Numbered from the stretch's first letter, positions 5,078-31,565 are shown. The stretch: DNA of 64,000 bases from Planctomycetota bacterium (GCA_047638675.1 JBLIML010000004.1:1360-65359), one strand, 5' to 3'. Translations and numbers: made by a program. The notes: generated by a model not told the origin, from the letters alone.

Positions 5078-5122
5078 CTGAAAATCCCTATGTCGGTGGT
5101 TCAATTCCACCCCCGGCCACCA
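5078..5122 (+). other. 3' half of a tRNA-Phe(GAA) gene without a 5' half (att-like remnant)
   Basis: Reads CTGAAAA / TCCCT / ATGTC / GGTGG-TTCAATT-CCACC / CCCGGCC / A / CCA. These are the anticodon loop, 3' anticodon stem, variable loop, T arm, 3' acceptor strand, discriminator and CCA. No GGCCGGG acceptor 5' strand or D arm lies upstream. Confidence 0.75.
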
Positions 5123-5147
5123 TCTTCTTAAATACTGGTATTTAATT

Positions 5148-8824: not shown

Positions 8825-8841
8825 AAGGTCTTGCTTTCGAC

Positions 8842-15371: not shown

Positions 15372-16285
15372 GGTGCGTCCTGTGATTCCGGTGCCTGAAA
15401 GTGTTGAAAAAGCATCATTGGCAAGATCAGGATTAGCAAGAGAATAGTGGCAACGGCTGCTGACAATGGCCAATCACGATTACCGAAAAATTCATCGTAA
15501 AGTGTTCGACCAATCATCAGCGAATCCAGTCCGCCCAGTAAAGATGGAATAACAAATTCCCCCAGGGCGGGAATAAATACCAGCAAACTACCGGCGACGA
15601 TGCCGGGCAGGGAAAGTGGCAGCGTGATATCGCGAAAGATAACCAGCGGTTTCGCACCTAGATCAGCGGCGGCGTCATTCAAATCAAAATCCAGTTTTTC
15701 CAGATTAGCGAAAAGTGGCAGGATCATAAAAGGCAAATAAGAGTAAACAATACCCAGATAGACAGCGAAATCGGTATATAGCAGTTTCAGAGGTTGTTCG
15801 ATAAGTCCCAGTGCGATTAAGGAATTATTGATTAAACCGTGGGTGCTCAACATTCCCATCCAGGCATAGACTCTGAGTAAAAACGATGTCCAGAACGGCA
15901 GGATGATCAGGAACAGAAAAATATTGCGCCATACTGAATCTGCCCGAGCTATAGCGTAAGCCATTGGATATCCAATGAGTAAGCAAAGACAGGTCGATAT
16001 AAAGGCAATTTTTAGTGATTTGAAATAGCTTATCCAGTAAAGATCATCCTCCATCAGGAATCGATAGTTATCCAGAGTGAAATGAAAAGAGATGTTTGCG
16101 TTTTCCGAAAACTCAAGCAATGGTGTAAAAGGCGGGAGCGCCACTACAGGGTCAGAAAAACTGATCTTGAAAATAATGGCGAAAGGCATGAGGAAAAAAA
16201 TCAGAAGCCATAAATAGGGTGCCAAAATAACAAAACGTCGCCACAATATATCCAGCGTTCTTTGTTGAGACAAAGGGGCATTCAT
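15368..16285 (-). CDS. Polyamine-type ABC transporter permease (PotH/PotB-like)
   Basis: 305 aa, six hydrophobic spans, EAA-like loop (DLGAKPLVIFRDITLP). 4-nt overlap with the ATPase gene. Confidence 0.85.
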   Translation of the reverse strand: MNAPLSQQRTLDILWRRFVILAPYLWLLIFFLMPFAIIFKISFSDPVVALPPFTPLLEFSENANISFHFTLDNYRFLMEDDLYWISYFKSLKIAFISTCLCLLIGYPMAYAIARADSVWRNIFLFLIILPFWTSFLLRVYAWMGMLSTHGLINNSLIALGLIEQPLKLLYTDFAVYLGIVYSYLPFMILPLFANLEKLDFDLNDAAADLGAKPLVIFRDITLPLSLPGIVAGSLLVFIPALGEFVIPSLLGGLDSLMIGRTLYDEFFGNRDWPLSAAVATILLLILILPMMLFQHFQAPESQDAP

Positions 16286-17421
16286 TCGGTTAGCACGACG
16301 CTGCTTTGCGCATCCCAGGACAGGTAGACTTCTTCATCCCATTCAAGAACACGTTCAGCTGAGCGCACTCTGTTTTGTGCACTAACCTGAACAATTTTAC
16401 CCGAGGCTGTTTTAACCCTGTAAATTGACAAATTACCGTGATAACCCAGATCCCAGACAACACCTTTTATAACGGACAAACCATTTCCCTGTGGTCGATC
16501 TTTATCTATAGTTATTTTTTCTGGTCTGACGGCAATAGTTAGTTCAGAACCCACTACTGTATCAATAGGATTCACGGCCAGTATTGTTGTCCCCGTTTCC
16601 TTACATTTCATTTCCAGTTCTCTGTCATTGAGTTTACTTACAACACCTTCAAACAAGTTTATGCTGCCAAAAAAATCGGCGACATAGCGATTGACAGGAT
16701 ATTCGTAGATTTGCTTTGGTGTGCCAGTTTGTATCACTTTGCCACTATGCATAACCGCTATACGTGAGGAGAGAATCATGGCTTCATCTTGATCATGGGT
16801 CACAACGATAAAAGTTATGCCGATTTGATCCTGAATATTCATCAATTCAAATTGAGTATGCTCACGCAGTTTTTTATCAAGTGCGGCAAGCGGTTCATCC
16901 AGCAATAAAACTTTTGGTTTTTTAATAAGCGCTCTGGCCAGCGCAACGCGTTGTCGCTGTCCCCCAGATAATTGATGAGGCTTACGTTTTGCAAACTCCG
17001 TCATTTGTACCAGTTCGAGCATTTCCTCTACACGGTTTTGTATTTCCTGTTTTCTTACGCCTTCTTTTTTTAGACCATAGGCAACATTTTTCTCAACCGA
17101 CATATGTGGAAATACTGCATAAGACTGAAACATCATGTTCACCGGGCGCTCGTATGGCGGCACGGTAGTCATGTCAACTCCGTCAATAAGGATCCTGCCA
17201 GCGGCAGGTGTTTCGAATCCGGCAAGCATGCGCAATAATGTGGTCTTACCGCAGCCGGATCCACCGAGAATAGCAAAAAATTCATTCTTATAAATATTGA
17301 GATTTACATTATCCACCGCCAGATAACCATCAAAGTCTTTTGAAATATTTTCAATCTGAATGAAGGGCGCTTCATCCGGAGCCTGCCAGACGGGTTTTAG
17401 TTGAGATGTTGCATCAATCAT
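16282..17421 (-). CDS. Polyamine-type ABC transporter ATPase (PotA/PotG-like)
   Basis: Walker A GGSGCGKTT, signature LSGGQRQRVALARAL, Walker B LLLDEP, C-terminal TOBE-like domain. Confidence 0.9.
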   Translation of the reverse strand: MIDATSQLKPVWQAPDEAPFIQIENISKDFDGYLAVDNVNLNIYKNEFFAILGGSGCGKTTLLRMLAGFETPAAGRILIDGVDMTTVPPYERPVNMMFQSYAVFPHMSVEKNVAYGLKKEGVRKQEIQNRVEEMLELVQMTEFAKRKPHQLSGGQRQRVALARALIKKPKVLLLDEPLAALDKKLREHTQFELMNIQDQIGITFIVVTHDQDEAMILSSRIAVMHSGKVIQTGTPKQIYEYPVNRYVADFFGSINLFEGVVSKLNDRELEMKCKETGTTILAVNPIDTVVGSELTIAVRPEKITIDKDRPQGNGLSVIKGVVWDLGYHGNLSIYRVKTASGKIVQVSAQNRVRSAERVLEWDEEVYLSWDAQSSVVLTE

Positions 17422-17440
17422 TTTGAATGGTTAGCTATCT

Positions 17441-18529
17441 TCAAATTCCGGTTTTCATTCGCGTCCATGCCCTCGAACGTGGACGTTCCTTTTTGGGTGA
17501 GAAAACTACCACAGCTTGCAATCTTTTTCTCACGCTTGCATTGGGGTAAATCCCGGGATCGCTCGTGATCTCAATATCTACAAGCGGAGTAGCGGATTTA
17601 TTGCCGTTAGCATAACCGGTAAAATTGGAGATAGCTGCAATAACTTCCGGGCGTAACAAATAGTTTATAAGAAGGAGTGCATTACCTGGGTGTGGGGCAT
17701 CGGCCGGTATAACCAGTGTGTCGAACCAGTTATGCACACCCCTGGAGAACATGGCAAAACCCAGATTAATATCAATGTCAGCTTCTTTAGCCCGTCTTTT
17801 TGCGACGGAGTAATCACCCGACCAGCTCATGGCTGCACAAACTTCCTTATTCGGCATATCAATCAACATTTTTCCCGAACTGAAATATTTTATATAGGGG
17901 CGAATTGCCTTTACTACCTGCTCGGCCTCTTTCAAGTGTTGTGGTTCGATCGAGTTTGCGTGATGACCAAGATAATTCATTACCGAAGGTATCGTATCAA
18001 TCGAACCGTCCAGTAAACTGACGCCACAATCGCTTATGCGGGACAGAATTTTCGGATCGAAAAAAAAGTCAGCAGTCTCCAATGATACTTCGGGGATACG
18101 TTCCTTTAGCAAGTCAATGTTGAAGGCGACGCCGGTTGTTCCCCACATATAAGGTGCTGCATGTCGATTGTCCGGATCGAAGGCAGATAGCTTATTCAAA
18201 AGCTCGGGATCAAGGTGATGCCAGTTAGAGAGTTTGCTCCGGTCCAGTGTCTGATAAATACCTGCAGTAATTAGTCTTGCGGAAAATGATGCTGAATGGA
18301 GAACAAGATCATAGCCACTTTTACCTGCCAGCAATTTGGCATCTACAATGTCGGTCGTATCGTAAATATCGTAATTGACCTTGATACCGTATTCTTTCTC
18401 AAAATTGCTCAGGGTATCTGGTCCGATATAATCTGCCCAGTTGTAAAAATTAACAATTTTTTCTTCTCCTGCATACAAATTCTGTAGCAGAAAAAAAGTC
18501 GCCAGTAGAATAAATAGATTTCTAATCAT
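17441..18529 (-). CDS. Periplasmic substrate-binding protein, PotF/PotD family
   Basis: 362 aa. Signal peptide MIRNLFILLATFFLLQNLYA. PotF-like N-terminus (NFYNWADYIGPDTL..FEKEYGIKV). Confidence 0.85.
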   Translation of the reverse strand: MIRNLFILLATFFLLQNLYAGEEKIVNFYNWADYIGPDTLSNFEKEYGIKVNYDIYDTTDIVDAKLLAGKSGYDLVLHSASFSARLITAGIYQTLDRSKLSNWHHLDPELLNKLSAFDPDNRHAAPYMWGTTGVAFNIDLLKERIPEVSLETADFFFDPKILSRISDCGVSLLDGSIDTIPSVMNYLGHHANSIEPQHLKEAEQVVKAIRPYIKYFSSGKMLIDMPNKEVCAAMSWSGDYSVAKRRAKEADIDINLGFAMFSRGVHNWFDTLVIPADAPHPGNALLLINYLLRPEVIAAISNFTGYANGNKSATPLVDIEITSDPGIYPNASVRKRLQAVVVFSPKKERPRSRAWTRMKTGI

Positions 18530-18564: not shown

Positions 18565-19719
18565 CTACATATCTGCGAGACCGCGTTTTAGCAGGCCTTT
18601 CGCAATAATCATACGCTGTATTTCACTTGTGCCTTCCCAGATACGATCAACACGCAACTCTCTGAAATACCGTTCGGCCAGGTTTTCGCGCATATAGCCG
18701 CGACCACCGAATATTTGTACTGCGCGATCTGCCACTCGATTGGCCATCTCAGATGCATAGAGTTTTGCCATAGAACAACGCGCATGTAATTGTTTCAAGT
18801 CATCACCACGATCATGTGCCTGTGCTGCCTCAAAAGTCATGAGTCGAGCGGCCCAGAGTTCTGTGACGCTGTCTGCCAACATAAATTGAATGGCCTGTTT
18901 GCTTGCCAAAGGCTCACCCTGAATATCACGGTTTTTGGCGAATTCAGCCGCTTCCTCTATCAAACGTGCCGCCGCTCCACAACATCGGGCTGCTATCATC
19001 ATACGTTCGTGACGAAACCAGCTTCTCGAGTACTGCATGCCCTCTCCTTCGGCACCAATGCGCATCGCATCCGCTACGAAGACATCTGTGAAGCGATAAG
19101 TTGGGTGATGAGCGGCGTATGTATGACTGAATAAAGGGTTGGCGATAACTTCTACGCCCGCTGTATTAATATCAAGAAAGAAGAGCGCGTGTTCGCCATT
19201 TTCTAATTTAGCCTGTATAAAAAAATAGTCGGCAAGATTGGCACTGGTTACGTACCATTTTTCACCGTTGATGGTATAACCACCTTTACACTTCGTTGCC
19301 CTTGTATTTATCGTCTCGTTTGAACCTGCCTCCGCTTCAGTGATGGCGTAGCACTCTTTTCGAGAGCTATCTATGAGAGGCAATATATAATTTTCTATCT
19401 GCTGTTTGCTGCAGGCTTCAAACATCCACTGTTGCGCTTCGGAAAAACACCAGCATAAGGCATTGGTTACTTTTCCAAGTTGCTCCCAAACCGCAACTTG
19501 TTCCGTCATACCAAGTTCGAGACCGCCGAACTTTTTCGGCACATCCATTTTGCTAAAACCCAGTTCTATCGCAAGTAAGTTGTGTCGTTTACTTATCTTC
19601 TCTGGCAGCACGCCTCCGTTAAATTCGGCCTCAATTTCCCAGGGCTTTAACTCTTCTTCGGTAAACTTGAAAGCTTTCCCCTGCCATTCTCTGGCGTTAT
19701 CACTTAATACGAGATCCAT
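18565..19719 (-). CDS. Acyl-CoA dehydrogenase family protein
   Basis: ACAD C-terminal motifs (QIFGGRGYMRE, IWEGTSEIQR). The preferred start, ATG at 19719 (MDLVLSD), lies 13 nt after the tetR stop. The listed ORF start at 19791 would overlap tetR. Confidence 0.85.
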   Translation of the reverse strand: MDLVLSDNAREWQGKAFKFTEEELKPWEIEAEFNGGVLPEKISKRHNLLAIELGFSKMDVPKKFGGLELGMTEQVAVWEQLGKVTNALCWCFSEAQQWMFEACSKQQIENYILPLIDSSRKECYAITEAEAGSNETINTRATKCKGGYTINGEKWYVTSANLADYFFIQAKLENGEHALFFLDINTAGVEVIANPLFSHTYAAHHPTYRFTDVFVADAMRIGAEGEGMQYSRSWFRHERMMIAARCCGAAARLIEEAAEFAKNRDIQGEPLASKQAIQFMLADSVTELWAARLMTFEAAQAHDRGDDLKQLHARCSMAKLYASEMANRVADRAVQIFGGRGYMRENLAERYFRELRVDRIWEGTSEIQRMIIAKGLLKRGLADM

Positions 19720-19732
19720 AAGGTCTAATCGC

Positions 19733-20374
19733 TTAGTTGTTACTGAAATGATTTGGAAACATAACGGCGAGATAATCAAAACATATCTCACAGGCTTCTT
19801 TACGATTTATCGCGTTTGGCGTCATTAAAAGATCCAGCCACAGACCGTTTACGAGGGCAGATAAACCAACCGCAAATGACTGTGATTTGATATGCTTGTA
19901 GGCAGGGTCTTTTTTCAATTCGTCACATAGTTTTGCCAGCACATTATTGGCTATTTCGTCACTTTTCGCACAAATCTGCAAGTAAGTTGGTCTGGACTTT
20001 GCTTCGCCCCAATAAGCGAACCATACGGCGAGTTTTTTCCTGTCACAAACTTTTGCACTAAAATCGAGGTTCACCAATGCGGCCATTTTTTCTTCCGCTG
20101 AATCGCCTGCTTTGTTTACTGCCCTGGTGCAAATGTCCTGATACTCATTCGAAAGATATAACAAAGTCTCTTCAAGCAATTTATCTTTGCTCTGGAAATG
20201 CAGATTCACGATACCCAGGCTCAAGCCAGCATCCTTTGTGACATCGGCCATCGTCGTTCCGGCAATACCACGATTAGCGATACAATTTATCGTGGACTTG
20301 ATGAGCTGCTCGCGTCGACGTTCTTTGCCCGTGACTCTGCTATTTGAGACTGCCTTTTGCGCTGCAATTACCAT
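19733..20374 (-). CDS. TetR/AcrR-family transcriptional regulator
   Basis: N-terminal HTH: CIANRGIAGTTMADVTKDAGLSLGIVNLHFQSKDKLLEETL. 213 aa. Confidence 0.9.
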   Translation of the reverse strand: MVIAAQKAVSNSRVTGKERRREQLIKSTINCIANRGIAGTTMADVTKDAGLSLGIVNLHFQSKDKLLEETLLYLSNEYQDICTRAVNKAGDSAEEKMAALVNLDFSAKVCDRKKLAVWFAYWGEAKSRPTYLQICAKSDEIANNVLAKLCDELKKDPAYKHIKSQSFAVGLSALVNGLWLDLLMTPNAINRKEACEICFDYLAVMFPNHFSNN

Positions 20375-20452
20375 GAAAGATATTGTTTATCGCTCGTTTA
20401 AAAACATGAGTACATTACCTGCAAATTTGTATTTAGCAAGTATTTTATCACA

Positions 20453-20480
20453 AAATATGAATGAATAATCATTCATATTT
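20453..20480. promoter_or_regulatory. Perfect 12-4-12 palindrome AAATATGAATGA-ATAA-TCATTCATATTT, the probable TetR operator
   Basis: Read directly from the sequence. It lies 79 nt from the tetR start and 61 nt from the divergent aminotransferase start. Confidence 0.7.
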
Positions 20481-20540
20481 GTAGACAATTTATCTGGCGC
20501 GTGGCATGCTGACAGCCCAATCCAAACCAATGGAGGCTAT

Positions 20541-21884
20541 ATGAGTCGTGTACACACCAAATCAAATGCACAGTTTCAAAAGGCAATAAAACGCCTCCCG
20601 CTTGGCGTTTCTTCCAATTTTCGCTATTGGGGCGAAGACAAAACTATTTATGCGAAACGCGGTAAAGGTGGCCGCTTGTGGGATATCGATGATAACGAAT
20701 ACATCGATTACCGACTTGGCTATGGCCCGGCGATCCTTGGCTATGCAGATGAACGTGTCGATCAAGCCGCTCGTGATGGTATGAATGTTGGCGGCGTGTT
20801 TGCGCTCTCAACTGAACTCGAATATACGGTCGCCGATCGGATATGCAAAATGGTGTCATCAGCTGAGCTGGTGCGATTTTCCATATCCGGTACGGAGGCC
20901 GTCATGGCAGCATTACGGCTGGCTCGAGCTTACAGTGGCAAAGATGAATACGTATTGGTAGAGGGCGGTTATCACGGCGTCTTCAGTGAAGGTTTGTGGT
21001 ATTCAGAAGTTGAAGATTGGAAGGTGAGTGAGGGTGATCCGGAATTAATGCCATACAGTGAAGGGGTACCCGAACTTTACGGCCACCTTATTCATAGTGT
21101 CCCCTTAAACGATGCTAATCGTGTTGAGCGTTTGTTTCAGCGACATGCTGGCAAAATCGCGGCTTTTTTGATTGAACCCATGATGGGAAATTGTTGTTCC
21201 ATCACCGCTGAACAGCAATACCTGAAAGACGTACGTGAATTATGTACAAAGTATGATGTGATTTTGATCATCGATGAAGTTAAGACTGGTTTCCGGGTGG
21301 CTAAAGGTGGTGTTCAGGAGCTTTTAGGCGTTGATGCTGACCTCTCAACTTTTGCGAAATCAATGGCCAATGGATACCCGATTTCAGCCTTGGTGGGTCA
21401 GGAGGAGATCATGAGAATGATTGGTAACGGCGTTGTACATGGCGGCACCTATACGGCTCACTCTGTTTCAATAGCAGCGGCAAACAAGACACTTGAAATT
21501 CTCGATGAAACGCCTGCCCTGGCCAATATTGCTGAATATGGAATTAAACTTCGTGATGGCCTGGATAAAATATTGTCACGCCGAGGTATTCCGCATTGTT
21601 TTGTTGGCCATCCAGCTATGTCAGGTATGTTTTTTAGTGCAACGCCACCTAGTAACTACCGTGATTGGGTGAAAACCGATTACACATTTTACGACACGCT
21701 CGCGCCGAACTTGCATGATCTGGGTATTCTGGTTGAACCGGATTCTCGTGAACCCTGGTTCATGTGTGAAGCGCACGATGATAAGTGCTTTGACGAAACT
21801 ATTTTGAAATTTGAACAGGCAGTCGATATAACTATCGAGCAACTTCAACACACAACTAACAATCCGGTACAAAAAGTTAATTGA
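20541..21884 (+). CDS. Class III aminotransferase (glutamate-1-semialdehyde aminomutase-like)
   Basis: 447 aa. GYGPAILGY, SGTEAVMAALRLAR, IIDEVKTGFR, FAKSMANGYP. Confidence 0.85.
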   Translation: MSRVHTKSNAQFQKAIKRLPLGVSSNFRYWGEDKTIYAKRGKGGRLWDIDDNEYIDYRLGYGPAILGYADERVDQAARDGMNVGGVFALSTELEYTVADRICKMVSSAELVRFSISGTEAVMAALRLARAYSGKDEYVLVEGGYHGVFSEGLWYSEVEDWKVSEGDPELMPYSEGVPELYGHLIHSVPLNDANRVERLFQRHAGKIAAFLIEPMMGNCCSITAEQQYLKDVRELCTKYDVILIIDEVKTGFRVAKGGVQELLGVDADLSTFAKSMANGYPISALVGQEEIMRMIGNGVVHGGTYTAHSVSIAAANKTLEILDETPALANIAEYGIKLRDGLDKILSRRGIPHCFVGHPAMSGMFFSATPPSNYRDWVKTDYTFYDTLAPNLHDLGILVEPDSREPWFMCEAHDDKCFDETILKFEQAVDITIEQLQHTTNNPVQKVN

Positions 21885-21893
21885 GATGAAAAC

Positions 21894-23510
21894 ATGAAAA
21901 AGTATGACGCCATAGTGATTGGTGCTGGCCATAACGGCCTCACCAATGCTGCTTACTTAGCCAAGTCCGGTTTGAAGGTATTGGTAGTTGAAAAAAATCC
22001 CTGGATAGGCGGTGCGTCCGTGAGTCGTTCTCTCTATGAAGGCTGGACTTATTCGAATTGCTCCTATGTATGCAGTTTATTTCGCCCGGAAATTTATCGA
22101 GATCTTGAACTGGCGCGTCACGGTTTGCAGGTTATTCCTTATGAAGGTGGTCTTACCTTTATGCAAAATGGAGATTACTTCGGTAACTATCCGGATGCTG
22201 AACGCCATCATCGAGAAATTGCGAGACACTCCGCGCGTGATGCCAATGCTTATGACCGTTATAGCGCCGATGTGTCGAGGCAAACACGTCTTATTAGACC
22301 TTTTTTAATGAGAACACCCCCCGATCCTACCTCTTTCAAACCTGGTGATGTGATGGAGCTGATTCACATGATCAAGACTTACTGGGATCTCGGCGAGGAA
22401 ATTCTCTATGACACGATCCGTTTCTGGACGATGAGCGTGGGTGATTTTCTTGATGGGTATTTCGAATCCAATATTCTAAAAGCGCATCTTGCGGGCTCCG
22501 GCATTATCGGTACGGCGCTTGGTGTCTACTCACCGGGTACAGCTTACGTATTATTACACCATTATATGGGGGATGTGGACGGCAGTATTGGTTCATGGGG
22601 TTTTGCCCGTGGAGGAATGGGTTCGATTGCTAAAGCCCTGGCTGGTTCTTTCGAGTCATTTGGTGGTGAGATCATGGTCGATGCGGGTGTCGATAAAATT
22701 CTTGTTAAAGATGAAAAAGTGACTGGCGTGGTGCTCGAGAATGGCGATGAGCATTATGCGGACATTGTTATATCTAATCTGGATCCGAAGCGTACCTTTC
22801 TCAATATTATGAATGAAGAGGATTTGCCAGCAGATGTCGTTAAGAAGGCGAAGAATTTCAAGATTAGAGGCTCTTCTGGAAAACTGAATATTTCTCTGGA
22901 TGGCATGCCTTCTTTCAAAGCAATCCCTGATGGCCATGAATTGTTGAAAGCCGATTTTCATTTTATCGATTCAATGGAACGCATGGAACGCGCCTACGAC
23001 GACTGGAAGAACGGCATGTGGTCGAGAGATCCCTATGTAGATGCCTTGATTCCTACTCAGGTCGATCCGACCATGGCGCCTCCCGGGAAACACATGATGA
23101 CGGTGTTCGTTCAATACTGCCCACCAAAAGTAAAAGATGAGGAATGGACAGATGAGAAGCGTGACGCTTTTGGCCAGACAGTGATCGATCAAATTTCAGA
23201 ATATAGCCCCAACTTCAAAGATCTGATTCTTCATGCAGAAATTCGTACGCCACGAGAGATTGAAAATGAAGTGGGTCTTACCGAAGGCAACATATTTCAG
23301 GGAGAGCTGACCATGGATCAACTCTTGTTTAATCGACCTTTTCCTGGATATGCGCAATACCGGGGTCCGGTAAAAGGAATGTATATGTCCGGATCCGGCA
23401 CGCATCCGGGGGGCGGTGTTATGGGCGCGCCTGGCGTTAATTCCGCAAGAGAGATCCTCAGAGATCTAAATCGAAAGAATATTACTCCGGAGGCCTTCAG
23501 CGATGAGTAA
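21894..23510 (+). CDS. NAD(P)/FAD-dependent oxidoreductase, phytoene-desaturase-like (COG1233/PYROXD2-like), copy 1
   Basis: 538 aa. YDAIVIGAGHNGLTNAAYLAKSG, GGASVS, SLFRPEIYRDLELARHGL, C-terminal GSGTHPGGGVMG. Confidence 0.8.
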   Translation: MKKYDAIVIGAGHNGLTNAAYLAKSGLKVLVVEKNPWIGGASVSRSLYEGWTYSNCSYVCSLFRPEIYRDLELARHGLQVIPYEGGLTFMQNGDYFGNYPDAERHHREIARHSARDANAYDRYSADVSRQTRLIRPFLMRTPPDPTSFKPGDVMELIHMIKTYWDLGEEILYDTIRFWTMSVGDFLDGYFESNILKAHLAGSGIIGTALGVYSPGTAYVLLHHYMGDVDGSIGSWGFARGGMGSIAKALAGSFESFGGEIMVDAGVDKILVKDEKVTGVVLENGDEHYADIVISNLDPKRTFLNIMNEEDLPADVVKKAKNFKIRGSSGKLNISLDGMPSFKAIPDGHELLKADFHFIDSMERMERAYDDWKNGMWSRDPYVDALIPTQVDPTMAPPGKHMMTVFVQYCPPKVKDEEWTDEKRDAFGQTVIDQISEYSPNFKDLILHAEIRTPREIENEVGLTEGNIFQGELTMDQLLFNRPFPGYAQYRGPVKGMYMSGSGTHPGGGVMGAPGVNSAREILRDLNRKNITPEAFSDE

Positions 23511-25071
23511 GCAATACGACGCCACAATCATAGGGGCGGGTCACAACGGTCTGGTCTGTGCCACTTATCTCGCCAAAGCCGGGCAGAAGGTATTGATCCT
23601 GGAGGCAAATGAACAAGTTGGCGGTGCGGCAATCACACGTGAGTTCGCTAGTGGATTCTCTGTTTCTGCCTGTGCACATTTACTGCATTTGTTACACCCC
23701 CAGATAATTACTGATCTGTCCCTGCCGAGTCACGGTTTGAAAATGGCTGCGCAGGGTTTGAGTACTATCGCCTTGTCAGCAGACGGTGAGCATCTTACTC
23801 TTGATAGAGACACCATTAGTGGAGCGGGAATTTCAAATAGCGATCAAACTGCCTATCGCGATTTCCAAACCAGGCTCCGACGTTTTGCCAGGATTGTTCA
23901 AAAGACTTTCATGACGCGTCCGCCACGTCTTGTGCATAAAGACAGAAAAGATTTGATGACTCTTGCGAAGCTGGGTCTTAGCGTACGATTGTTGGGAAAA
24001 GAAGATATGCGCGAGCTGCTTCGCATTGGCGCAATAAATATCTATGACGTATTGCAGGAAGACTTTGAAAGTGAGCTGTTAAAAGGTGCACTTGGTTTTG
24101 ATGCGGTGCTGGGCAGTAATATGGGACCACGCTCTCCTAACTCGGTACTCTCCTATCTCTATCGTCTTACTGGACAACTTAATGGAAATGATACTGCAAT
24201 TTCAGTTCCAGCGGGTGGTATGGGCGCAGTTACAAAGGCATTGCGCAAGGCCGCTGAAGCTGCTGGTGTTGAAATTAGAACTGGCACACGAGTCAAACAG
24301 ATTATTCTGGATGTCGACAATGTTACCGGGGTAGAAACGACAGAAGGTGAAAAAATAAATTGCGGCCTGGTCGTTTCCAATGCAGATCCGAAGACAACCT
24401 TTTTAAAACTTATCGGTGCAAGAAACATTGAAACCGGCTTCGCTCGACGCGTTGATAATATACGTATGAAGGGCAAAGCGGCCAAACTACATTTGGCTTT
24501 GGATGGCGTTCCCAGTTTTGAAGGACTGCCTGAAAAGCTGCTTGGTAATCGTCTTGTGATCGCACCTACTCTGCAATACATTGAGCAGGCTTTTGATCAT
24601 TCAAAATATGGCGAATATTCAAATGAGCCTGCCATTGAAATCAGCATTCCATCGATTCATGATGATAGCCTCGCGCCGCCAAGCAGGCATGTGCTCTCTG
24701 CCGTGGTTCAATACGCACCTTATGAATTACGTACTGGCTGGGATTCGCATCGCGATACTTTCAAACAAGTGGTGATAGACAAAATCGCAGAGTATGCCCC
24801 CGGAATAAAAGATCAAATAACTGCGTCAGAGTTATTGGTGCCAGCAGACATAGAAAGGGAATTTAATATTCATGGCGGGCATTGGCATCATGGTGAATAC
24901 ACGCTTGATCAATTTATGATGCTGCGCCCAGTACCCGGTGCTGCACAATATTCCACACCAATAAATGGTTTGTACCTTTGTGGGGCGGGTTCGCATCCCG
25001 GTGGCGGTGTAATGGGTCTCGCCGGACGTAATGCCTCAACAGAAATAATAAATCGGGAGCACAAGTCATGA
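23503..25071 (+). CDS. NAD(P)/FAD-dependent oxidoreductase, phytoene-desaturase-like (COG1233/PYROXD2-like), copy 2
   Basis: 522 aa paralogue of the preceding gene (YDATIIGAGHNGLVCATYLAKAG, GAGSHPGGGVMG). The start overlaps the upstream stop by 8 nt. Confidence 0.8.
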   Translation: MSKQYDATIIGAGHNGLVCATYLAKAGQKVLILEANEQVGGAAITREFASGFSVSACAHLLHLLHPQIITDLSLPSHGLKMAAQGLSTIALSADGEHLTLDRDTISGAGISNSDQTAYRDFQTRLRRFARIVQKTFMTRPPRLVHKDRKDLMTLAKLGLSVRLLGKEDMRELLRIGAINIYDVLQEDFESELLKGALGFDAVLGSNMGPRSPNSVLSYLYRLTGQLNGNDTAISVPAGGMGAVTKALRKAAEAAGVEIRTGTRVKQIILDVDNVTGVETTEGEKINCGLVVSNADPKTTFLKLIGARNIETGFARRVDNIRMKGKAAKLHLALDGVPSFEGLPEKLLGNRLVIAPTLQYIEQAFDHSKYGEYSNEPAIEISIPSIHDDSLAPPSRHVLSAVVQYAPYELRTGWDSHRDTFKQVVIDKIAEYAPGIKDQITASELLVPADIEREFNIHGGHWHHGEYTLDQFMMLRPVPGAAQYSTPINGLYLCGAGSHPGGGVMGLAGRNASTEIINREHKS

Positions 25072-26255
25072 GTGTAAGAGAAGCTGATAAACGTGTATTA
25101 ACTACGCCATTTTATTCACGCACTTCTGCGCTATGTGAAACCAATCTTTGGTCGCCCTGGAAAGCCTATACCACGGTCGATTGCTATTCCGTGCTGTTCG
25201 AAGAATATTTTGCAATTCGTAATGCGACTGCCGTGTTTGATCTTACGCCAATGACCAAGTATCGAATAAGCGGTATTGATGGGCTCGCCTATCTTGATAA
25301 GTTAATGACTCGCAAGATGAGTAAACTCACGCCAGGACGCGTTATGTACGGGGCGTGGTGTAACGACTTGGGTCATGTTCTGGATGATGGAACCGTTTTT
25401 CACCTGGAGGAAAATGTATGGCGTTTATGTTCGCAGGAACGTCATATGGATTGGTTGCAAGCAACGGCGATGGGCTTCGAAGTTGAAATTGAAGATGAGA
25501 CTGACGATGTTGTTGGTCTGGCAGTACAGGGACCCACTTCCTGCCAAACATTAAAATCGATGGGTCTGCAGGGTGTTGAAAATATTAAACCATTCCAGAT
25601 GAGGTCCTTCCCTTTCGCAAACTCAGAATTGCTGGTGTCACGAACTGGATTTACCGGTGATCTTGGCTATGAACTCTGGGTCACGCCCGATCTTGCCGAG
25701 AAACTATGGGACGCACTGTTTGAAGCAGGCAAATCTCATGGCATTCTTCCCATCGGTTCCCACGCTCTTGATATAGCACGTATTGAAGCCGGCTTTATTC
25801 AGGCTGATGTCGATTTCGTACCCGCATTGAACGTCGTGCGTGCAGGTAGAGGACGATCGCCCTTTGAGTTGGGTCTGGACTGGCTGGTTCATTTCGACAA
25901 ACCAATATTTAATGGACGAAAGGCCCTGTTAAAAGAGAAAGAAACGGGTTCTCGATATCGTTTTGTGCGTCTTGACGTTGAAGGTAACAAGCCTGCAAAC
26001 GACTCGTTTGTTTACAATGGTAAAAAGGAAATTGTTGGGCATGTGACTTCAGCAACGTGGTCGCCCAGCGCAAAAAAGAATATTGCATTGGCTTCAGTGG
26101 AAATGCCCTGGGGTCGCCCGGAAGATGAATTATATGCGGAGATCTATTACAACCGCGAATTACAGTGGAATCGTCTCATGGCGCGTTGCCATGTCGTGGA
26201 AGGGGCGTTTTTTGATCCACCTCGACGACGTGAAACACCTCCCCTGGATTATTGA
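25068..26255 (+). CDS. GcvT-family (aminomethyltransferase fold, folate-binding) protein
   Basis: 395 aa. RTGFTGDLGYELW, ARIEAGF, SATWSP. ATGA overlap with the upstream gene. No gcvH or gcvP nearby. Confidence 0.8.
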   Translation: MSVREADKRVLTTPFYSRTSALCETNLWSPWKAYTTVDCYSVLFEEYFAIRNATAVFDLTPMTKYRISGIDGLAYLDKLMTRKMSKLTPGRVMYGAWCNDLGHVLDDGTVFHLEENVWRLCSQERHMDWLQATAMGFEVEIEDETDDVVGLAVQGPTSCQTLKSMGLQGVENIKPFQMRSFPFANSELLVSRTGFTGDLGYELWVTPDLAEKLWDALFEAGKSHGILPIGSHALDIARIEAGFIQADVDFVPALNVVRAGRGRSPFELGLDWLVHFDKPIFNGRKALLKEKETGSRYRFVRLDVEGNKPANDSFVYNGKKEIVGHVTSATWSPSAKKNIALASVEMPWGRPEDELYAEIYYNRELQWNRLMARCHVVEGAFFDPPRRRETPPLDY

Positions 26256-26359
26256 TTCATTCATACGGGAAAAGAAAAACCGGGATGTAAAACTACCAGA
26301 GAGTAATCGCTGGTCCTTATGCCTAATCATTTCATCTCTATCTTCATCGTCACATAACC

Positions 26360-28495
26360 ATGCCTCATAAGCTAGATTCATTGTTGCGACCCCGGTCTAT
26401 TGCGGTAGTGGGTGCAAGCCGACGTGATGGCGTTGTTGGCAATATGATTCTGAAGAATCTATTAAGAGGAGAGTATCCAGGTAATCTCTATGCAGTTAAC
26501 CCCGGCTATAACGAAGTAGAGGGGCTTGCCTGTTTCCCATCACTTTCTGAATTACCTGAAGCGGTTGAGCACGTAATTTTTGCCGTCAATGATGAGCGCA
26601 TTGAAAATGCACTTGATTCGGCAATAGCGCATGGAATTAAAGCTGGCACAATTTTCTCATCACTAATTCTCGCAAATGATACCTCACCTTTATTGAAAGA
26701 GAGGATATATAAAAAAGCGAAGGAGGCAAATTTGTTACTCTGCGGTGCCAATGGAATGGGTTACTACAACTTTACCGAGAGTATTTGGGCCTGCGGATTT
26801 GACACCCGCTGTCACCGTAAACAGGGTAATGTGACGTTAATCAGCCAGTCTGGTGCGGGTATGTCGGGAATTCTGGATGTAGATGAACGACTCGATTTTA
26901 ATTTTGCCGTATCTACCGGTCAGGAATTGATGGTGTCAGCGGAAGACTATCTTGATTACGCTTTGGATCAAAAGGAGACGCGTGTCATCGGCTTCTTTAT
27001 GGAAACCAGCCGTAGCCCTGATAAGCTCATTGCGGCTTTTGAAAAAGCCAATGAACGAAAAATCCCGATTGTCGTGATTAAAGTTGGACGCACGGCGCTT
27101 GCTTCAAAACTTGCTGTGTCTCATTCCGGTGCGATGGCAGGCGCTGACAATGTTTATAACGCGATTTTTGACCGTTATGGCGTGCAGCGAGTTGAGGACA
27201 TGGAAGAGCTTGCGACTACACTGATAATGTTTGCTCAACCACATTCAGTCGGCCCCGGAGGATTTGTTAGCCTTCATGATTCGGGCGGGGAGCGTCAATT
27301 GATTATTGACCTGGCTGATAAGGCGGATGTCACACTTGCCGATTTATCTGCCCAAACAATTCGCAAACTGGAAGGCTTGCTCGATCCTGGATTACCCGCG
27401 GTAAACCCGCTGGATGCATGGAGTGTAGGTGGCCCCGATTATGATAAAACAATGGCAGAATGTTTTGCTAGTTTGTTGTGTGATCCAGGCGCCGCTCTTG
27501 GCGCCGTTGTACATGACCGTGCGCCCTTCGGTCATATCTATCCGGAATACATTGGCTATTTACGCAGTGCGCACAAGGCCTCAGGTAAACCGGTTTTCCT
27601 GGTGTCGAACAGACAAGGCACAGGTGAGGATCCGATGGTGCTTGAATCCACCCGTGAGGGATTTCCAGTGCTTGACGGCGTTAGCGCTTTTCTGAGTGGC
27701 GTAAAGTGTCTGATGGCCTATCGGGACTTTCTTGAGCGGCCTCAGATGATTTTGCCCACTTTATCAAATGATACGATTAGCAGCTGGCGGACCAGATTTA
27801 GGGAAGGTCAGACAATTACAGAAAATGTGGCCAGTAGTTTTCTGGCAGCGTGCGGCCTGCCGATGAACAAATCAGTGTTGATTGAAACAGAGGCTGAGCT
27901 AGTAAACTCAATAGCAGAAGTCAGCTATCCTCTTGCCTTGAAAACAGCCAATCCAGAGATAAAGCATAAAACCGAACAAAAAGGGGTCATTCTTGATATC
28001 CAGAATGAGAAAGAATTATTGGAAGTCTATTCCGACATGTCATCGCGACTAGGTGGCAAAGTTCTTCTCTCGCCGATGATAGATTCGCCAGGCATTGAAA
28101 TGATACTGGGTATCGCCAGTGATGAGCAGTTTGGACCCATGATTGTAATGGGCTTTGGTGGGGTGTATACGGAAGTATTGGAGGACATAGTTATTCTCTT
28201 TCCTCCTTTTGATGCACAGTATGCTTTCCACAATCTTCGATGCTTGAGGATGAGGAAAATACTGGACGAAGTAAGAGGCAAGCCAGCATGGGATTTATCT
28301 GCATATTGTGAAGCCGCTGCTATTCTTTCCGTTGTCGCCCTTATGTTTAAAGATGAAATTATTGAACTGGATATTAACCCGGTGAAGGTTATGGAACATG
28401 GTTGCCTCGGATTAGATGCGCTTGTCGTCACAACAATCAAAGAGACAACTCGTCTTGCTGAATTACGGATGGAATCGAAAAACAGTTATGCTTGA
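26360..28495 (+). CDS. ADP-forming acyl-CoA synthetase (acetate-CoA ligase family; CoA-binding, ligase-CoA and ATP-grasp domains fused)
   Basis: 711 aa. PRSIAVVGASRR CoA-binding N-terminus, central SHSGAMAG phosphohistidine-loop-like segment, C-terminal ATP-grasp. Confidence 0.8.
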   Translation: MPHKLDSLLRPRSIAVVGASRRDGVVGNMILKNLLRGEYPGNLYAVNPGYNEVEGLACFPSLSELPEAVEHVIFAVNDERIENALDSAIAHGIKAGTIFSSLILANDTSPLLKERIYKKAKEANLLLCGANGMGYYNFTESIWACGFDTRCHRKQGNVTLISQSGAGMSGILDVDERLDFNFAVSTGQELMVSAEDYLDYALDQKETRVIGFFMETSRSPDKLIAAFEKANERKIPIVVIKVGRTALASKLAVSHSGAMAGADNVYNAIFDRYGVQRVEDMEELATTLIMFAQPHSVGPGGFVSLHDSGGERQLIIDLADKADVTLADLSAQTIRKLEGLLDPGLPAVNPLDAWSVGGPDYDKTMAECFASLLCDPGAALGAVVHDRAPFGHIYPEYIGYLRSAHKASGKPVFLVSNRQGTGEDPMVLESTREGFPVLDGVSAFLSGVKCLMAYRDFLERPQMILPTLSNDTISSWRTRFREGQTITENVASSFLAACGLPMNKSVLIETEAELVNSIAEVSYPLALKTANPEIKHKTEQKGVILDIQNEKELLEVYSDMSSRLGGKVLLSPMIDSPGIEMILGIASDEQFGPMIVMGFGGVYTEVLEDIVILFPPFDAQYAFHNLRCLRMRKILDEVRGKPAWDLSAYCEAAAILSVVALMFKDEIIELDINPVKVMEHGCLGLDALVVTTIKETTRLAELRMESKNSYA

Positions 28496-29321
28496 TAAGA
28501 ATAAATATCAGACAATAATTTACAAAACCGATGGGCCTGTCGCCACCTTAACACTTAATCGACCGGACAAGCTCAATGCTATCAACGCTCAGATGGTTAA
28601 GGAGTTAAACGAAGCGCTTGATGATGCCGAAAGCTGTGATCAAGTGCGCGCTATTATATTGTCTGGAGCTGGACGTGCGTTTTCGGCCGGATTTGATCTG
28701 ACTGCAGGCAACGACGGAAGCGCAGAATCTGATCTTGAGTTCTGGCGTCAGGAATTAAAACGCGATTTCGATATAATCATGCGTTTCTGGGATTGTCCGA
28801 AACCGACAATCGCCGCTGTTCATGGTTATTGTCTCGGCAGTTCGATGGAGATGGCCGTTGCCTGCGATATCACTATCTCATCAGAGGATTGCCTGTTTGG
28901 CGCACCGGAAGTTAAATTCGGTAGTGGCATCGTTGCATTGATTTTGCCATGGGTTATAGGCGTTAAAGCAGCGAAGGAACTTTTACTTACTGGCGATGAT
29001 AAAGTGACGGCAGTACGTGCTTTGTCACTAGGACTGATAAACCGGATCGTCGAGAATGTAGAACTTGAAGAGAGTGGCCTGTCGATTGCTCGCTCCATAG
29101 CAAATAACGACCGATTGGCGGTAAAGCTTACCAAGCAGGCAATAAACAGTAGTTGCGAAGCAATGGGAATGCGAGAGTCATTGTTGCAGGCGCTCGACGC
29201 GGACCTGATAATTGAAACCACGGAAACGCCAGAGTCAAAAGAATTTAACCAGATACTTAAACAACAAGGCGCCAGGGCAGCATTTGACTGGCGAAGCAAA
29301 AAAGTGAATAACGAAGAATAA
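28488..29321 (+). CDS. Enoyl-CoA hydratase/isomerase (crotonase) family protein
   Basis: LNRPDKLNA and GAGRAFSAGFDL oxyanion-hole motifs. The preferred start, ATG at 28488, overlaps the upstream stop by 8 nt. Confidence 0.85.
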   Translation: MLDKNKYQTIIYKTDGPVATLTLNRPDKLNAINAQMVKELNEALDDAESCDQVRAIILSGAGRAFSAGFDLTAGNDGSAESDLEFWRQELKRDFDIIMRFWDCPKPTIAAVHGYCLGSSMEMAVACDITISSEDCLFGAPEVKFGSGIVALILPWVIGVKAAKELLLTGDDKVTAVRALSLGLINRIVENVELEESGLSIARSIANNDRLAVKLTKQAINSSCEAMGMRESLLQALDADLIIETTETPESKEFNQILKQQGARAAFDWRSKKVNNEE

Positions 29322-29326
29322 TTATT

Positions 29327-30718
29327 ATGAAAATAGCAGATAGAGCAAGTGTCGAAGAATTGCAGGCTTTCCTGAAGAAAAATCCCGGGACAAAAATGAT
29401 TGAAGCTCTTATGGTCGACGTTAACGGCATGCTACGAGGCAAACGCATTGGCGTTAACGAATTTACGACTCTGTATGAAGAGGGTCTAAAGGCCTGTGGC
29501 TCAACGCCCTTTGTTGATAGTCGTGGTGAAATTGCCCTTGAAAATGGGCTTGGTACAAGGGATGGCGATCCCGACGTTATGAATTATGCCGTTAAAGATA
29601 CGCTGGTATCTGTTCCATGGCTCGATTCTCCCGTTGCTCAGGTGCTTACCTCACTGGCAAATTTTGATGGCTCACCTTATTATTCGGATCCCAGACACGT
29701 ATTACAAGGCACCTGCGAGAAACTTGTCGAATCGGGCTTTCATCCAGTCGTGGCAACTGAGTTTGAATTTTACTTACTCAAGGCAGGTAAGGGTATCGTA
29801 CCTGGACCGGAACTGGGTACTATTCCCGGCACCACACTGGAACAACAGGGTCTGCAATTCTCAAGCATGGAGGACTTGTGGGAAAGTGATCCTGTATTGA
29901 TGGATATACTGGCGTGCTGTGAAACGCAGGCTATACCTGCCACAACCGTCCTGTCCGAGTTCGCACCAGGTCAATTTGAAATCAATTTACAACACGTTAA
30001 GGATCCTTTGACTGCTTGCGATCATGGTGCAATGCTAAAACGTGCAATCAAAGGGACCACATTTAAACATGGACTTGGTGCCTCCTTCATGGCAAAACCT
30101 TTTGCTGAGTTTTCCGGCAGTGGCTTGCACATCCATGTGAGTTTATATGATGAGGATGGTAATAATGTCTTTGCAGATGACAACTCAAAGACAGTGCCGG
30201 CTTTATCCACGACAATTCGACATGCCATTGGCGGGCTACAACGCAGCATGGCAGATGCCATGGCCATATTTGCACCCAATGCTAATTCCTATCGTCGACT
30301 TCAGCCTAACTCCTTTGTACCCTTGTCGCCCCACTGGGGATATAACCATCGCGGCGTTGCCCTTCGCATACCTGTCAGCGATAGTCGTAATATGCGTATC
30401 GAACACAGGGTAGCGGGTGCAGACGCCAATCCCTACCTGGTCATGGCCGCTCTTTTGGCTGGAATTCATTATGGTATTTCTAATAAGTGTGAGCCAACGG
30501 AGATGATTGCTGAAGGGACACTGATTGAAAAGCAGGAGGTTACACTTCCTATTCGTTGGGAAGCGGCACTGCAGAAATTCAAAGATAGTGAAATTTTACC
30601 AATGTATCTGGGTGAAGAGTTTTGTCATGTTTTTGAAATTGCAAGACGCAGTGAAAGTGATCGCTTCCATGCACAGATTAGTAATCTTGATTACGAATGG
30701 TATTTACGTTCTGTTTGA
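29327..30718 (+). CDS. Glutamine synthetase-family gamma-glutamyl-amine synthetase (second paralogue)
   Basis: 463 aa GS catalytic domain (NANSYRRLQP, IEHRVAGADANPYL). Confidence 0.8.
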   Translation: MKIADRASVEELQAFLKKNPGTKMIEALMVDVNGMLRGKRIGVNEFTTLYEEGLKACGSTPFVDSRGEIALENGLGTRDGDPDVMNYAVKDTLVSVPWLDSPVAQVLTSLANFDGSPYYSDPRHVLQGTCEKLVESGFHPVVATEFEFYLLKAGKGIVPGPELGTIPGTTLEQQGLQFSSMEDLWESDPVLMDILACCETQAIPATTVLSEFAPGQFEINLQHVKDPLTACDHGAMLKRAIKGTTFKHGLGASFMAKPFAEFSGSGLHIHVSLYDEDGNNVFADDNSKTVPALSTTIRHAIGGLQRSMADAMAIFAPNANSYRRLQPNSFVPLSPHWGYNHRGVALRIPVSDSRNMRIEHRVAGADANPYLVMAALLAGIHYGISNKCEPTEMIAEGTLIEKQEVTLPIRWEAALQKFKDSEILPMYLGEEFCHVFEIARRSESDRFHAQISNLDYEWYLRSV

Positions 30719-30796
30719 TTCTTGTGCGCGGACAGTTGGTTCAATTTGAACCATGCTGATCAATTTTAATAACTGAATCACTACTGTCTTTTTCTA

Positions 30797-31462
30797 ATGT
30801 CAAATCCAGGCTATATAGCCATCAAGGAATTTTGCGTCAATTCACCGAAGACGGATCCGAAAGGAATATTTCTCATGGCACATGGGGCCGGCAAGGGAAT
30901 GGCAAGTCCTTTTCTGGAGGCGATCGCCAATGGTGTTGTCGACGCAGGCGTCAGAGTCGTCCGGTTTCATTTCCCGTATATGGAAGACATGTTGCGGACT
31001 GGGATACAAAAAAAACCGAATGGCGGCAGACTTTTGCGGCAGACTTTTGCTGAATTGATTGAACATTGCGTAGAACACGAAAAAATGTCCCGCAACAAAA
31101 TAATAATTGGCGGCAAATCCATGGGCGCCAGGGTTGCATCCATGATTGCCGATGAACAAAAAGTCGCTGGCGTTATTTGTCTAAGCTATCCCTTTCATCC
31201 TCCGAAGAAACCTGAGCGAATACGCATAGATCATCTTCTTAATATCCAGACGCCTACGCTAATATGTCAGGGAGATCGCAATCCGAATGGCAAGCGGAAA
31301 TCGCTTGAAGAGTTAAGGCTATCTAAATCGATTCAGTTCCATTGGCTGGAAGATGGTGACAATAACTTCAAGCCGCGTAAAAAATCTGGCCGAACTCTGG
31401 ATGACAATATGACTGAGGCGATTATAAGTTGTAACGCGTTTATCAAAGGCTTATTAGAATAA
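30797..31462 (+). CDS. Alpha/beta hydrolase (dienelactone-hydrolase/KANL3-like)
   Basis: 221 aa. Nucleophile elbow GGKSMGARV. Typical alpha/beta length and order. Confidence 0.65.
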   Translation: MSNPGYIAIKEFCVNSPKTDPKGIFLMAHGAGKGMASPFLEAIANGVVDAGVRVVRFHFPYMEDMLRTGIQKKPNGGRLLRQTFAELIEHCVEHEKMSRNKIIIGGKSMGARVASMIADEQKVAGVICLSYPFHPPKKPERIRIDHLLNIQTPTLICQGDRNPNGKRKSLEELRLSKSIQFHWLEDGDNNFKPRKKSGRTLDDNMTEAIISCNAFIKGLLE

Positions 31463-31565
31463 TGGTAGTGTCTGTGATTTCTGGTGGCTTTAGTAACATT
31501 GCAGCAAGGCAAAGCATTAATGCTCTCCATGCTAGTTTTGCTAGCACCACCTTGTAGATGTAGAC

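Follow-up and report, generated by a model that had tools for sequence, protein, structure and literature searches.

A conserved gene trio of two PYROXD2-type flavoproteins and a stand-alone GcvT-fold protein: a candidate folate-linked N-demethylase

The three genes and their products

A 64,000-nucleotide (nt) stretch of DNA from a Planctomycetota bacterium (GCA_047638675.1, JBLIML010000004.1:1360-65359), hereafter the window, carries three overlapping genes on its plus strand. The first (21894-23510) is an open reading frame (ORF) of 538 aa for a PYROXD2-type (COG1233/CrtI-like) flavoprotein, here called FlvA. The second (23503-25071) is an ORF of 522 aa for FlvB, a second flavoprotein subunit and divergent FlvA paralogue, and the third (25068-26255) is an ORF of 395 aa for a stand-alone GcvT-fold protein, predicted to bind tetrahydrofolate (THF) and here called GcvT-like. 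The FlvA stop and the FlvB start share 8 nt on the plus strand (ATGAGTAA, 23503-23510, where the sequence reads gcgATGAGTAAg), and the FlvB stop and the GcvT-like start share the 4 nt ATGA (25068-25071, plus strand, context tcATGAgt). An initial annotation, made from the sequence alone, had given these frames and both overlaps, and its coordinates proved exact when the ORFs were called and the sequence was read again. A promoter and terminator scan of 19700-31700 returned counts at chance level.

The same annotation had described the flavoproteins as paralogues with a common dinucleotide fold and C-terminal motif, and it had assigned the third gene to the GcvT family without gcvH or gcvP nearby; each of these descriptions held. 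FlvA and FlvB are 36% identical across 521 residues (E 1e-118), both begin with the YDAxxIGAGHNGL dinucleotide fold, and both carry the HPGGGVMG motif towards the C-terminus (FlvA, GSGTHPGGGVMG; FlvB, GAGSHPGGGVMG). The third gene product matches PF01571 (E 4e-55) and PF08669. Size and lipoyl-motif scans found neither gcvH nor gcvP within the 64-kb window: no annotated ORF there is of GcvP size (the three longest other ORFs encode HrpB, a TonB receptor and a kinase), and the GcvH lipoyl-lysine motif is absent from all frames. No second GcvT-family match was found elsewhere in the window.

Both flavoproteins are homologous to PYROXD2 over their full length. A PYROXD2 query of the protein database returned primate PYROXD2 entries 98% identical to it; mouse PYROXD2 aligns full length with FlvA at 37% identity (E 1e-129) and with FlvB at 35% (E 2e-102). 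An exhaustive homologue search of 1.84 billion representatives returned 2128 clusters at E<=1e-30, and the PYROXD2 clusters of oyster and flatworm, together with an unnamed choanoflagellate homologue, are in FlvA's best 60 of these 2128. The PYROXD2 motif set (GAGHNGL, SPG(S/T)xYVLLHH and GSG(T/A)HPGGGVMG) is complete in FlvA, where the second motif reads SPGTAYVLLHH, and SPG(T/S)xYVLLHH is common to animal PYROXD2 and some bacterial relatives. The PYROXD2-like label first given to the pair is therefore correct, on full-length homology, shared motifs and the presence of animal PYROXD2 among the closest relatives of FlvA.

Of the two subunits FlvB has diverged further, and they are not necessarily equivalent. 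It keeps the first and last PYROXD2 motifs, with an intact GxGxxG fold and HPGGGV motif, and has SPNSVLSYLYR where the LLHH motif stands. All 75 family-conserved columns are kept in FlvA, and FlvB departs from them at 10. Since FlvB is only 41-43% identical to its alphaproteobacterial orthologues, as against 63-65% for FlvA, it evolves faster than its partner. FlvA is the conserved subunit and presumably the catalytic one.

The AlphaFold2 (AF2) model of FlvA has a predicted local distance difference test (pLDDT) score of 91.7 and indicates a fold of the flavin amine-oxidase superfamily. Its top matches are 4REP, 3KA7 and 4DGK, of which 4REP and 4DGK are carotenoid desaturases and 3KA7 is an uncharacterised oxidoreductase; after CrtD and CrtI come the amine oxidases NicA2, putrescine oxidase and monoamine oxidase (MAO). 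Matches to the D-amino-acid oxidase (DAO) Pfam family PF01266 are limited to residues 5-56 of FlvA and two short stretches of FlvB, and the full-length similarity of both proteins is to Amino_oxidase/CrtI-type proteins. Identity as a carotenoid desaturase or ketolase (CrtI, CrtD, CrtO) was rejected because both proteins fall below every curated NCBIfam cut-off: the CrtO model gives 292 bits for FlvA and 260 for FlvB against a cut-off of 1000, and the crtI family model gives 114 and 154 bits against 238. No carotenoid genes were found in the 64-kb window.

One further feature concerns the region that may correspond to the covalent flavin mononucleotide (FMN) His motif of CtmAB and delta-24 sterol desaturase (delta-24-SD). 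FlvA has GWTYSNCSY and no His there, and FlvB has GFSVSACAH (residues 50-58; 23650-23680), which resembles the motif. At that column FlvA (residues 49-58; 22040-22070) and PYROXD2 have Tyr, and a Cys stands two residues earlier in both FlvA and FlvB.

The best NCBIfam match of the GcvT-like protein is the C-terminal half of trimethylamine N-oxide (TMAO) demethylase, Tdm (248.7 bits against a cut-off of 1100), of which it covers only model positions 387-760. It lies below both GcvT models (212.9 bits against 300; 159.6 against 235.85), and it scores 137 bits with DmdA (cut-off 410), 143 with soxA, and 69 and 68 with LigM and DesA. Identity as a true glycine-cleavage T-protein was rejected on the GcvT cut-offs and the lack of gcvH and gcvP in the window, and identity as DmdA was rejected on score.

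The protein can be aligned over its whole length with the T-protein of T. maritima and with Tdm's C-terminal half. D107 falls on the catalytic Asp96 of the T. maritima T-protein, E202 and R238 are also kept, and D107 is invariant across 24 homologues together with the GFTGDLGYE and RIEAG motifs. Leu replaces the Arg found in the GARD motif of T-proteins, as it does in Tdm. The AF2 model (pLDDT 77.9) gives template modelling (TM) scores of 0.77-0.85 to T-proteins and of ~0.75 to the THF domains of dimethylglycine dehydrogenase (DMGDH), dimethylglycine oxidase (DMGO), SoxA and DmdA. Because the fold matches include entries for DMGO D552A with THF and for E. coli T-protein D97N, the catalytic Asp is regarded as a functional residue. 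The folate-linked role first suggested for this gene is consistent with these results: the catalytic Asp and folate motifs are kept, a T-protein fold is modelled, and the protein is predicted to be competent for folate.

Two Arg-rich segments set the GcvT-like family apart. One is an insertion relative to T-proteins, VRxGRGRSPFELG (residues 246-263; window 25800-25860), and the other is a C-terminal tail, FFDPPRRRxTPP (residues 384-395; window 26210-26255). Both are family-specific, with invariant arginines and low model confidence, and they could be docking or polyglutamate-binding elements.

Conservation and genomic context

A scan of one genome per species placed the GcvT subfamily in at least 591 species. 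The best 80 of these, all Gammaproteobacteria (Halieaceae, Porticoccaceae, Steroidobacteraceae, Woeseiaceae and Lentisalinibacter), made up the locus set. The order FlvA-FlvB-GcvT, first seen in the window, is a conserved one: it is intact in 65 of the 68 species loci with enough upstream DNA, and it recurs on replicons of the cultured Alphaproteobacteria Parasedimentitalea marina W43, Shinella zoogloeoides ATCC 19623, Rhizobium sp. SL42, Ensifer adhaerens and Fuscovulum ytuae. The FlvA proteins of Parasedimentitalea marina and Shinella zoogloeoides are 63-65% identical to that of the window. FlvB is frameshifted in the other three loci (L009, L019 and L038, ~8400-9970 in each), where it is split and FlvA and GcvT are intact; all three are soil metagenome-assembled genomes from one project, and the frameshifts are probably long-read assembly errors rather than pseudogenisation.

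The overlaps are conserved as well. Of 64 related loci, 55 keep the 8-nt overlap and 38 the 4-nt overlap, and the proteins of these loci are just 57-86% identical to those of the window. Their recurrence at this level of divergence indicates that the overlaps are not due to chance.

The association also extends beyond the trio. Ten distant PYROXD2-like genes, with 34-48% identity to FlvA, were sampled, and four of them have a GcvT gene beside them, each in a different arrangement. Nocardioides caldifontis has GcvT followed by a single, overlapping flavoprotein gene. In L087 an A/B flavoprotein pair lies 1.5 kb from a GcvT gene on the opposite strand, and a Shinella sumterensis plasmid carries enoyl-CoA hydratase (ECH), ADP-forming CoA ligase, hydroxyacyl dehydrogenase (HADH), a single flavoprotein and GcvT. 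In L095 a Rieske oxygenase, an IclR-GcvT fusion, a flavoprotein and a DAO-type protein are encoded by overlapping genes. These distant GcvT partners are just 28-36% identical to the window's GcvT-like protein; the link is therefore ancient or has been re-formed repeatedly. The L095 fusion (4433-6004, 523 aa) joins an IclR-type helix-turn-helix to a full GcvT-fold protein, upstream of and overlapping the PYROXD2-like gene, and could be a regulator that senses folate or a substrate, or else the result of a merged gene call.

No natural PYROXD2-GcvT fusion was found among the 150 best representatives. The long ones are eukaryotic gene-model extensions with no extra domain (P0288, P0394, P0121) and P0296 (L085:1437-3887), an 816-aa ORF in which an N-terminal GFA (glutathione-dependent formaldehyde-activating) domain, PF04828, precedes a PYROXD2-like flavoprotein. 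This GFA fusion was seen on one eukaryote-like contig only and is a weak further hint of N-demethylation.

Within the window the trio is part of a same-strand run. A class-III (HemL/GntE-like) aminotransferase gene (20541-21884, plus strand; PF00202; GntE model 457 bits, under the 525 cut-off) ends 9 nt before FlvA. Downstream on the plus strand lie genes for an ADP-forming acyl-CoA synthetase (26360-28495; CoA_binding_2, Succ_CoA_lig, ATP-grasp_5), an enoyl-CoA hydratase (28416-29321; ECH_1), a glutamine synthetase (GS)-like amine ligase of the gamma-glutamyl-amine synthetase type (29327-30718; Gln-synt_C) and, last in the run, an alpha/beta hydrolase (30797-31462; Pfam Abhydrolase_11). The acyl-CoA synthetase is of the type that also adjoins the single Flv-GcvT pair of Shinella sumterensis. 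The ECH ORF start overlaps its neighbour by 80 nt (28416-28495); the JGI call is 288 aa, and the true start is probably downstream. The GS-like ligase is under the cut-offs for GS types I and III and for gamma-glutamylputrescine synthetase, and its identity as GmaS was rejected (209 bits against 469.6). The hydrolase is not recurrent in related loci, and its membership of the system is uncertain.

Upstream and divergent, on the minus strand, are genes for a BetI-type TetR repressor (19733-20374; PF13977, PF00440; BetI models 113 and 112 bits), an acyl-CoA dehydrogenase (ACAD; 18565-19791) and a PotF/PotABC-type ABC importer (14529-18529), whose ORFs encode a binding protein (PotF model 355.6 bits), an ATPase and two permeases. 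A BetI-like TetR gene is also found beside the trio in Parasedimentitalea and Shinella. The acyl-CoA dehydrogenase has the ACAD Pfam domains and reaches no equivalog cut-off; glutaryl-CoA dehydrogenase identity is not supported (111 bits). Its ORF start overlaps the neighbouring gene by 59 nt (19733-19791), and the public gene call starts later and gives 404 aa.

A gene for a GbcA/Stc2-like Rieske oxygenase lies 12 kb downstream (38448-39653, plus strand; GbcA model 327.8 bits, cut-off 670). Its product is 45% identical to that of a Rieske gene found after GcvT in many related loci, for which the best PDB matches are 3N0Q, Stc2 (3VCA) and 4QUP, named as a 'demethylase'. The protein is nearest to glycine betaine monooxygenase GbcA and stachydrine demethylase Stc2, and it is possibly a first-step demethylase of a quaternary amine.

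Neighbours were counted in the 45 loci with full flanks. A BetI-like TetR gene occurs in 29, a GS-like ligase in 28, a PotF-type binding protein (potD) in 24, an acyl-CoA dehydrogenase in 23 and an ADP-forming CoA ligase in 22. Rieske oxygenases are found in 20/45 loci and an SRPBCC-type oxygenase gene in 11/45, aminotransferases of the window's class-III type (type 1) in 17 and of a second type (type 2) in 12, aldehyde dehydrogenases in 16 and enoyl-CoA hydratases in 11. The alphaproteobacterial loci add a ~680-aa gene, annotated as NADH:flavin oxidoreductase in Shinella and as FAD-dependent oxidoreductase in Parasedimentitalea. Taken together, the recurrent neighbours point to methylated amines as substrates. 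Separately, a 188-aa protein with no NCBIfam match (13913-14479, plus strand) has homologues at 67% identity near the trio or its neighbours in ~10 related loci.

From its gene content, the whole window reads as an amine-catabolic island. It encodes agmatinase, a DAO-type oxidase, an amidase, omega-transaminases, two GS-like ligases, PuuD-like hydrolases, malonate-semialdehyde dehydrogenase, a PuuR-like regulator and agmatine deiminase. The polyamine-catabolic run also contains, with amidase and omega-transaminase on either side, a complete tungsten-type aldehyde:ferredoxin oxidoreductase (8842-10671, minus strand; AFOR_N and AFOR_C, E 4e-126); such an enzyme is unusual for an apparently aerobic marine gammaproteobacterium. 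At 54976-58055 a BCCT betaine/choline/carnitine transporter, a MarR regulator and a homocysteine S-methyltransferase (PF02574, BHMT-type family) are clustered in what looks like a separate, non-oxidative betaine demethylation locus. On either side of the amine island lie genes for two paralogous TPR-repeat proteins (36099-38114 and 49951-51930, both minus strand), of which at least one has a sulfotransferase domain at its C-terminus, and an S-adenosylmethionine (SAM) hydrolase/fluorinase-like gene lies at 35166-36068.

Proposed function and alternatives

The trio had been presented at the outset as a candidate new system, and no biochemical assignment of it was met in the searched literature, in NCBIfam or in database names. 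A full-text search of the literature open without subscription found no reaction assigned to the trio or to PYROXD2, and no curated NCBIfam model, equivalog or database name assigns either. Homologues bear the generic names 'phytoene dehydrogenase-like' and 'aminomethyltransferase', and the PGAP names are 'NAD(P)/FAD-dependent oxidoreductase' and 'aminomethyltransferase family protein'. The homarine operon homABCDER (PMC13236597) was considered and set aside, as HomA/HomB is another flavin pair and has no GcvT. PMC8777681 describes the reaction of animal PYROXD2 as not known. A link between PYROXD2 and methylated amines, mentioned in the initial annotation, is documented: metabolite quantitative trait loci (mQTLs) at PYROXD2 concern trimethylamine (TMA), dimethylamine, asymmetric dimethylarginine (ADMA) and N2-acetyl-N6,N6-dimethyllysine (PMC9286311; PMC13352909).

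From the homology, overlaps, neighbourhoods and cofactor motifs described above we infer a complex with its reaction, substrate class and electron acceptor. The reading that we favour, with modest confidence, is that FlvA, FlvB and the GcvT-like protein form a THF-linked oxidative N-demethylase in which a CrtI/PYROXD2-type flavoprotein takes the place of the DAO-type one. A FlvA-FlvB heteromer with flavin adenine dinucleotide (FAD) would convert a secondary or tertiary methylamine to an iminium by oxidation of its N-methyl C-N bond, and the one-carbon (C1) unit, as iminium or nascent formaldehyde, would pass to THF on the GcvT-like subunit, giving 5,10-methylene-THF and the demethylated amine. 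FlvA would be the PYROXD2-type catalytic subunit, and FlvB would either catalyse the next demethylation step as a second active subunit or play a structural part. S-demethylation, which had been allowed for initially, is without specific support.

The module would then serve the catabolism of an N-methylated omega-amino compound, candidates being a methylated di- or polyamine or an omega-amino acid betaine. Uptake could proceed via the PotF-type transporter, and the GbcA-like Rieske oxygenase might take the first methyl off a quaternary substrate. The primary amine product would enter transamination or gamma-glutamylation, and the carbon skeleton would pass to aldehyde dehydrogenase, CoA ligase, acyl-CoA dehydrogenase and enoyl-CoA hydratase.

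Several points weigh against this proposal. To our knowledge, characterised CrtI/COG1233 members act on allylic C-H or C-C bonds and none acts on C-N. Gene overlap is a sign of co-translation, not of a physical complex. Six of the ten distant PYROXD2-like genes sampled lack a GcvT neighbour and animals have no dedicated GcvT partner for PYROXD2, so THF coupling is not universal in the family. The neighbour sets vary among loci, and in 9 of the 45 (L011, L029, L036, L051, L058, L061, L067, L072 and L075) the trio has at most a transporter, TetR, ACAD or one oxygenase gene beside it. No gene for electron-transfer flavoprotein (ETF) or ferredoxin as electron acceptor was noticed near the trio. 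In one mQTL study the TMA signal at the PYROXD2 locus is assigned to a neighbouring gene, HPS1, in preference to PYROXD2 (PMC9286311).

The strongest alternative, which we nevertheless consider unlikely, is that the three proteins serve the same pathway as separate enzymes. FlvAB would carry out another flavin reaction, either internal C-N cleavage of the polyamine-oxidase type or C-C (de)saturation as in CrtI, RetSat, CtmAB and delta-24-SD, and the GcvT-like protein would handle a C1 unit made elsewhere, for example formaldehyde from a Rieske monooxygenase. Such a division would fit the chemistry of the characterised COG1233 relatives, all of which act on C-H or C-C bonds, the many PYROXD2-like genes without a GcvT neighbour, and the acyl-CoA enzymes common near the trio; a Rieske oxygenase, which would release formaldehyde, often adjoins it. 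However, it is a flavoprotein gene that GcvT overlaps, in three arrangements (A-B-T, T-Flv and T-Flv-DAO), whereas the Rieske gene is not overlapped by GcvT, varies in position and is often absent. The trio is also kept in loci without Rieske or acyl-CoA genes, and the mQTL data favour N-methyl compounds.

Less probable still, and in our view rather improbable, is a non-redox methyltransferase of the DmdA/LigM kind. The GcvT-like protein would form 5-methyl-THF with the methyl group of a quaternary ammonium or sulfonium compound, and FlvAB would regenerate the folate pool by re-oxidising this to 5,10-methylene-THF. DmdA and LigM are GcvT-family proteins without a redox partner and both are among the GcvT-like protein's matches, and the set of GcvT, CoA ligase, ACAD and ECH mirrors the demethylation of dimethylsulfoniopropionate (DMSP) by DmdABCD. 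A dedicated methyl-THF-oxidising enzyme coupled to THF-dependent demethylases is described in PMC11868366. Against this, the methylene-forming models (Tdm half, 248.7; GcvT, 212.9) score far above DmdA (137) and LigM/DesA (69/68), and the catalytic Asp of T-proteins is kept. Animal PYROXD2 is linked to methylated amines and not to folate traits, and the trio is found in Rhizobiaceae and Steroidobacteraceae from soil, where DMSP is hardly to be expected. Finally, carotenoid desaturases or ketolases beside a glycine-cleavage T-protein, as the best NCBIfam names (CrtO, crtI family, GcvT) and the source names 'phytoene dehydrogenase-like' and 'aminomethyltransferase' would have it, are hardly tenable, being contradicted by scores far under all curated cut-offs and by a context of amine-catabolic conserved neighbours in a window without carotenoid genes, gcvH or gcvP.

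A THF-linked N-demethylase would suggest a wider generalisation, which we put forward only tentatively: that PYROXD2-type proteins are a second class of N-methylamine dehydrogenase/demethylase, separate from the DAO-type class, with FlvAB-GcvT as its bacterial prototype and human PYROXD2 as a mitochondrial demethylase. Conservation of PYROXD2 extends from bacteria to humans, a severe infantile mitochondrial disorder results from its loss, and its locus is among the strongest metabolite QTLs for methylated amines. Since the conserved operon sets PYROXD2 homologues beside a THF C1 acceptor, it provides a concrete, assayable hypothesis for the PYROXD2 reaction, and the interest is high because the function of an orphan human disease gene becomes directly testable. 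If the generalisation is true, substrates of human PYROXD2 such as N6-methylated lysine derivatives and other methylated amines would be expected, and the mQTL signals, perhaps the infantile mitochondrial disease from PYROXD2 loss too, would be explained.

For bacteria, the demethylase, if real, would be an unrecognised route from methylated amines to the folate C1 pool and would add C-N oxidation to the known chemistry of the superfamily's CrtI branch, among the amine oxidases. Carriers include abundant marine Halieaceae and Porticoccaceae, sediment Woeseiaceae and soil Steroidobacteraceae, and cultured ones are available in Shinella zoogloeoides ATCC 19623, Parasedimentitalea marina W43, Lentisalinibacter spp. 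and Nocardioides caldifontis.

Comparison with characterised systems

Limonene dehydrogenase CtmAB and delta-24-SD are among the closest known parallels to the flavoprotein pair. Both are heterodimers of paralogous COG1233-type flavoproteins that form one enzyme of two subunits, and they are associated with methyl oxidation, CtmAB oxidising a methyl group (PMC4109377; PMC11061730). Like FlvA and FlvB, the subunits are encoded by adjacent paralogous genes, with a mutual identity of 26-27% as against 36%. They differ from the trio in having hydrocarbon substrates attacked at an allylic carbon and no folate partner. In both of their subunits FMN is attached covalently at the His motif G-F-L/R-x-N/S-T/L-H-A (PMC11061730), where FlvA appears to have no His, and CtmAB has a ferredoxin partner (PMC4109377). 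Animal PYROXD2 shares SPG(S/T)xYVLLHH and HPGGGVMG with FlvA, but it is the product of a single gene, carries a mitochondrial presequence and lacks a GcvT partner of its own.

Of the features of THF-linked N-demethylases, the trio has the GcvT-fold module with its catalytic Asp and lacks the DAO-family oxidising flavoprotein. In DMGDH, DMGO and sarcosine dehydrogenase (SARDH) a flavoprotein is likewise joined to a GcvT-fold THF module, which captures the C1 unit of the oxidised N-methyl group. There, however, a DAO-type flavin domain is fused to the THF domain in one ~830-aa chain, in contrast to two CrtI/PYROXD2-type flavoproteins and a separate THF protein. Heterotetrameric sarcosine oxidase (SoxABDG) and N-methylglutamate dehydrogenase (MgdABCD) are multi-subunit, operon-encoded THF-linked N-demethylases, and the SoxA THF domain matches the GcvT-like model; their DAO-type catalytic beta subunit and small gamma and delta subunits were not found with the trio. 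Tdm (PDB 9Q59) matches the GcvT-like protein through its C-terminal GcvT-like half (E 2e-45), but it is a single ~790-aa chain with a non-flavin N-terminal catalytic half.

DmdABCD resembles the window in combining a GcvT-family protein with CoA ligase, acyl-CoA dehydrogenase and enoyl-CoA hydratase, although DmdA needs no flavoprotein and the CoA ligase of the window is ADP-forming. Glycine betaine is demethylated stepwise through dimethylglycine and sarcosine to glycine, and the proposed route would mirror this pathway with a CrtI/PYROXD2-type flavoprotein in place of the DAO-type one. The pairing of a flavoprotein with a GcvT-fold THF module is thus a known principle; the class of the flavoprotein and the three-gene architecture are new.

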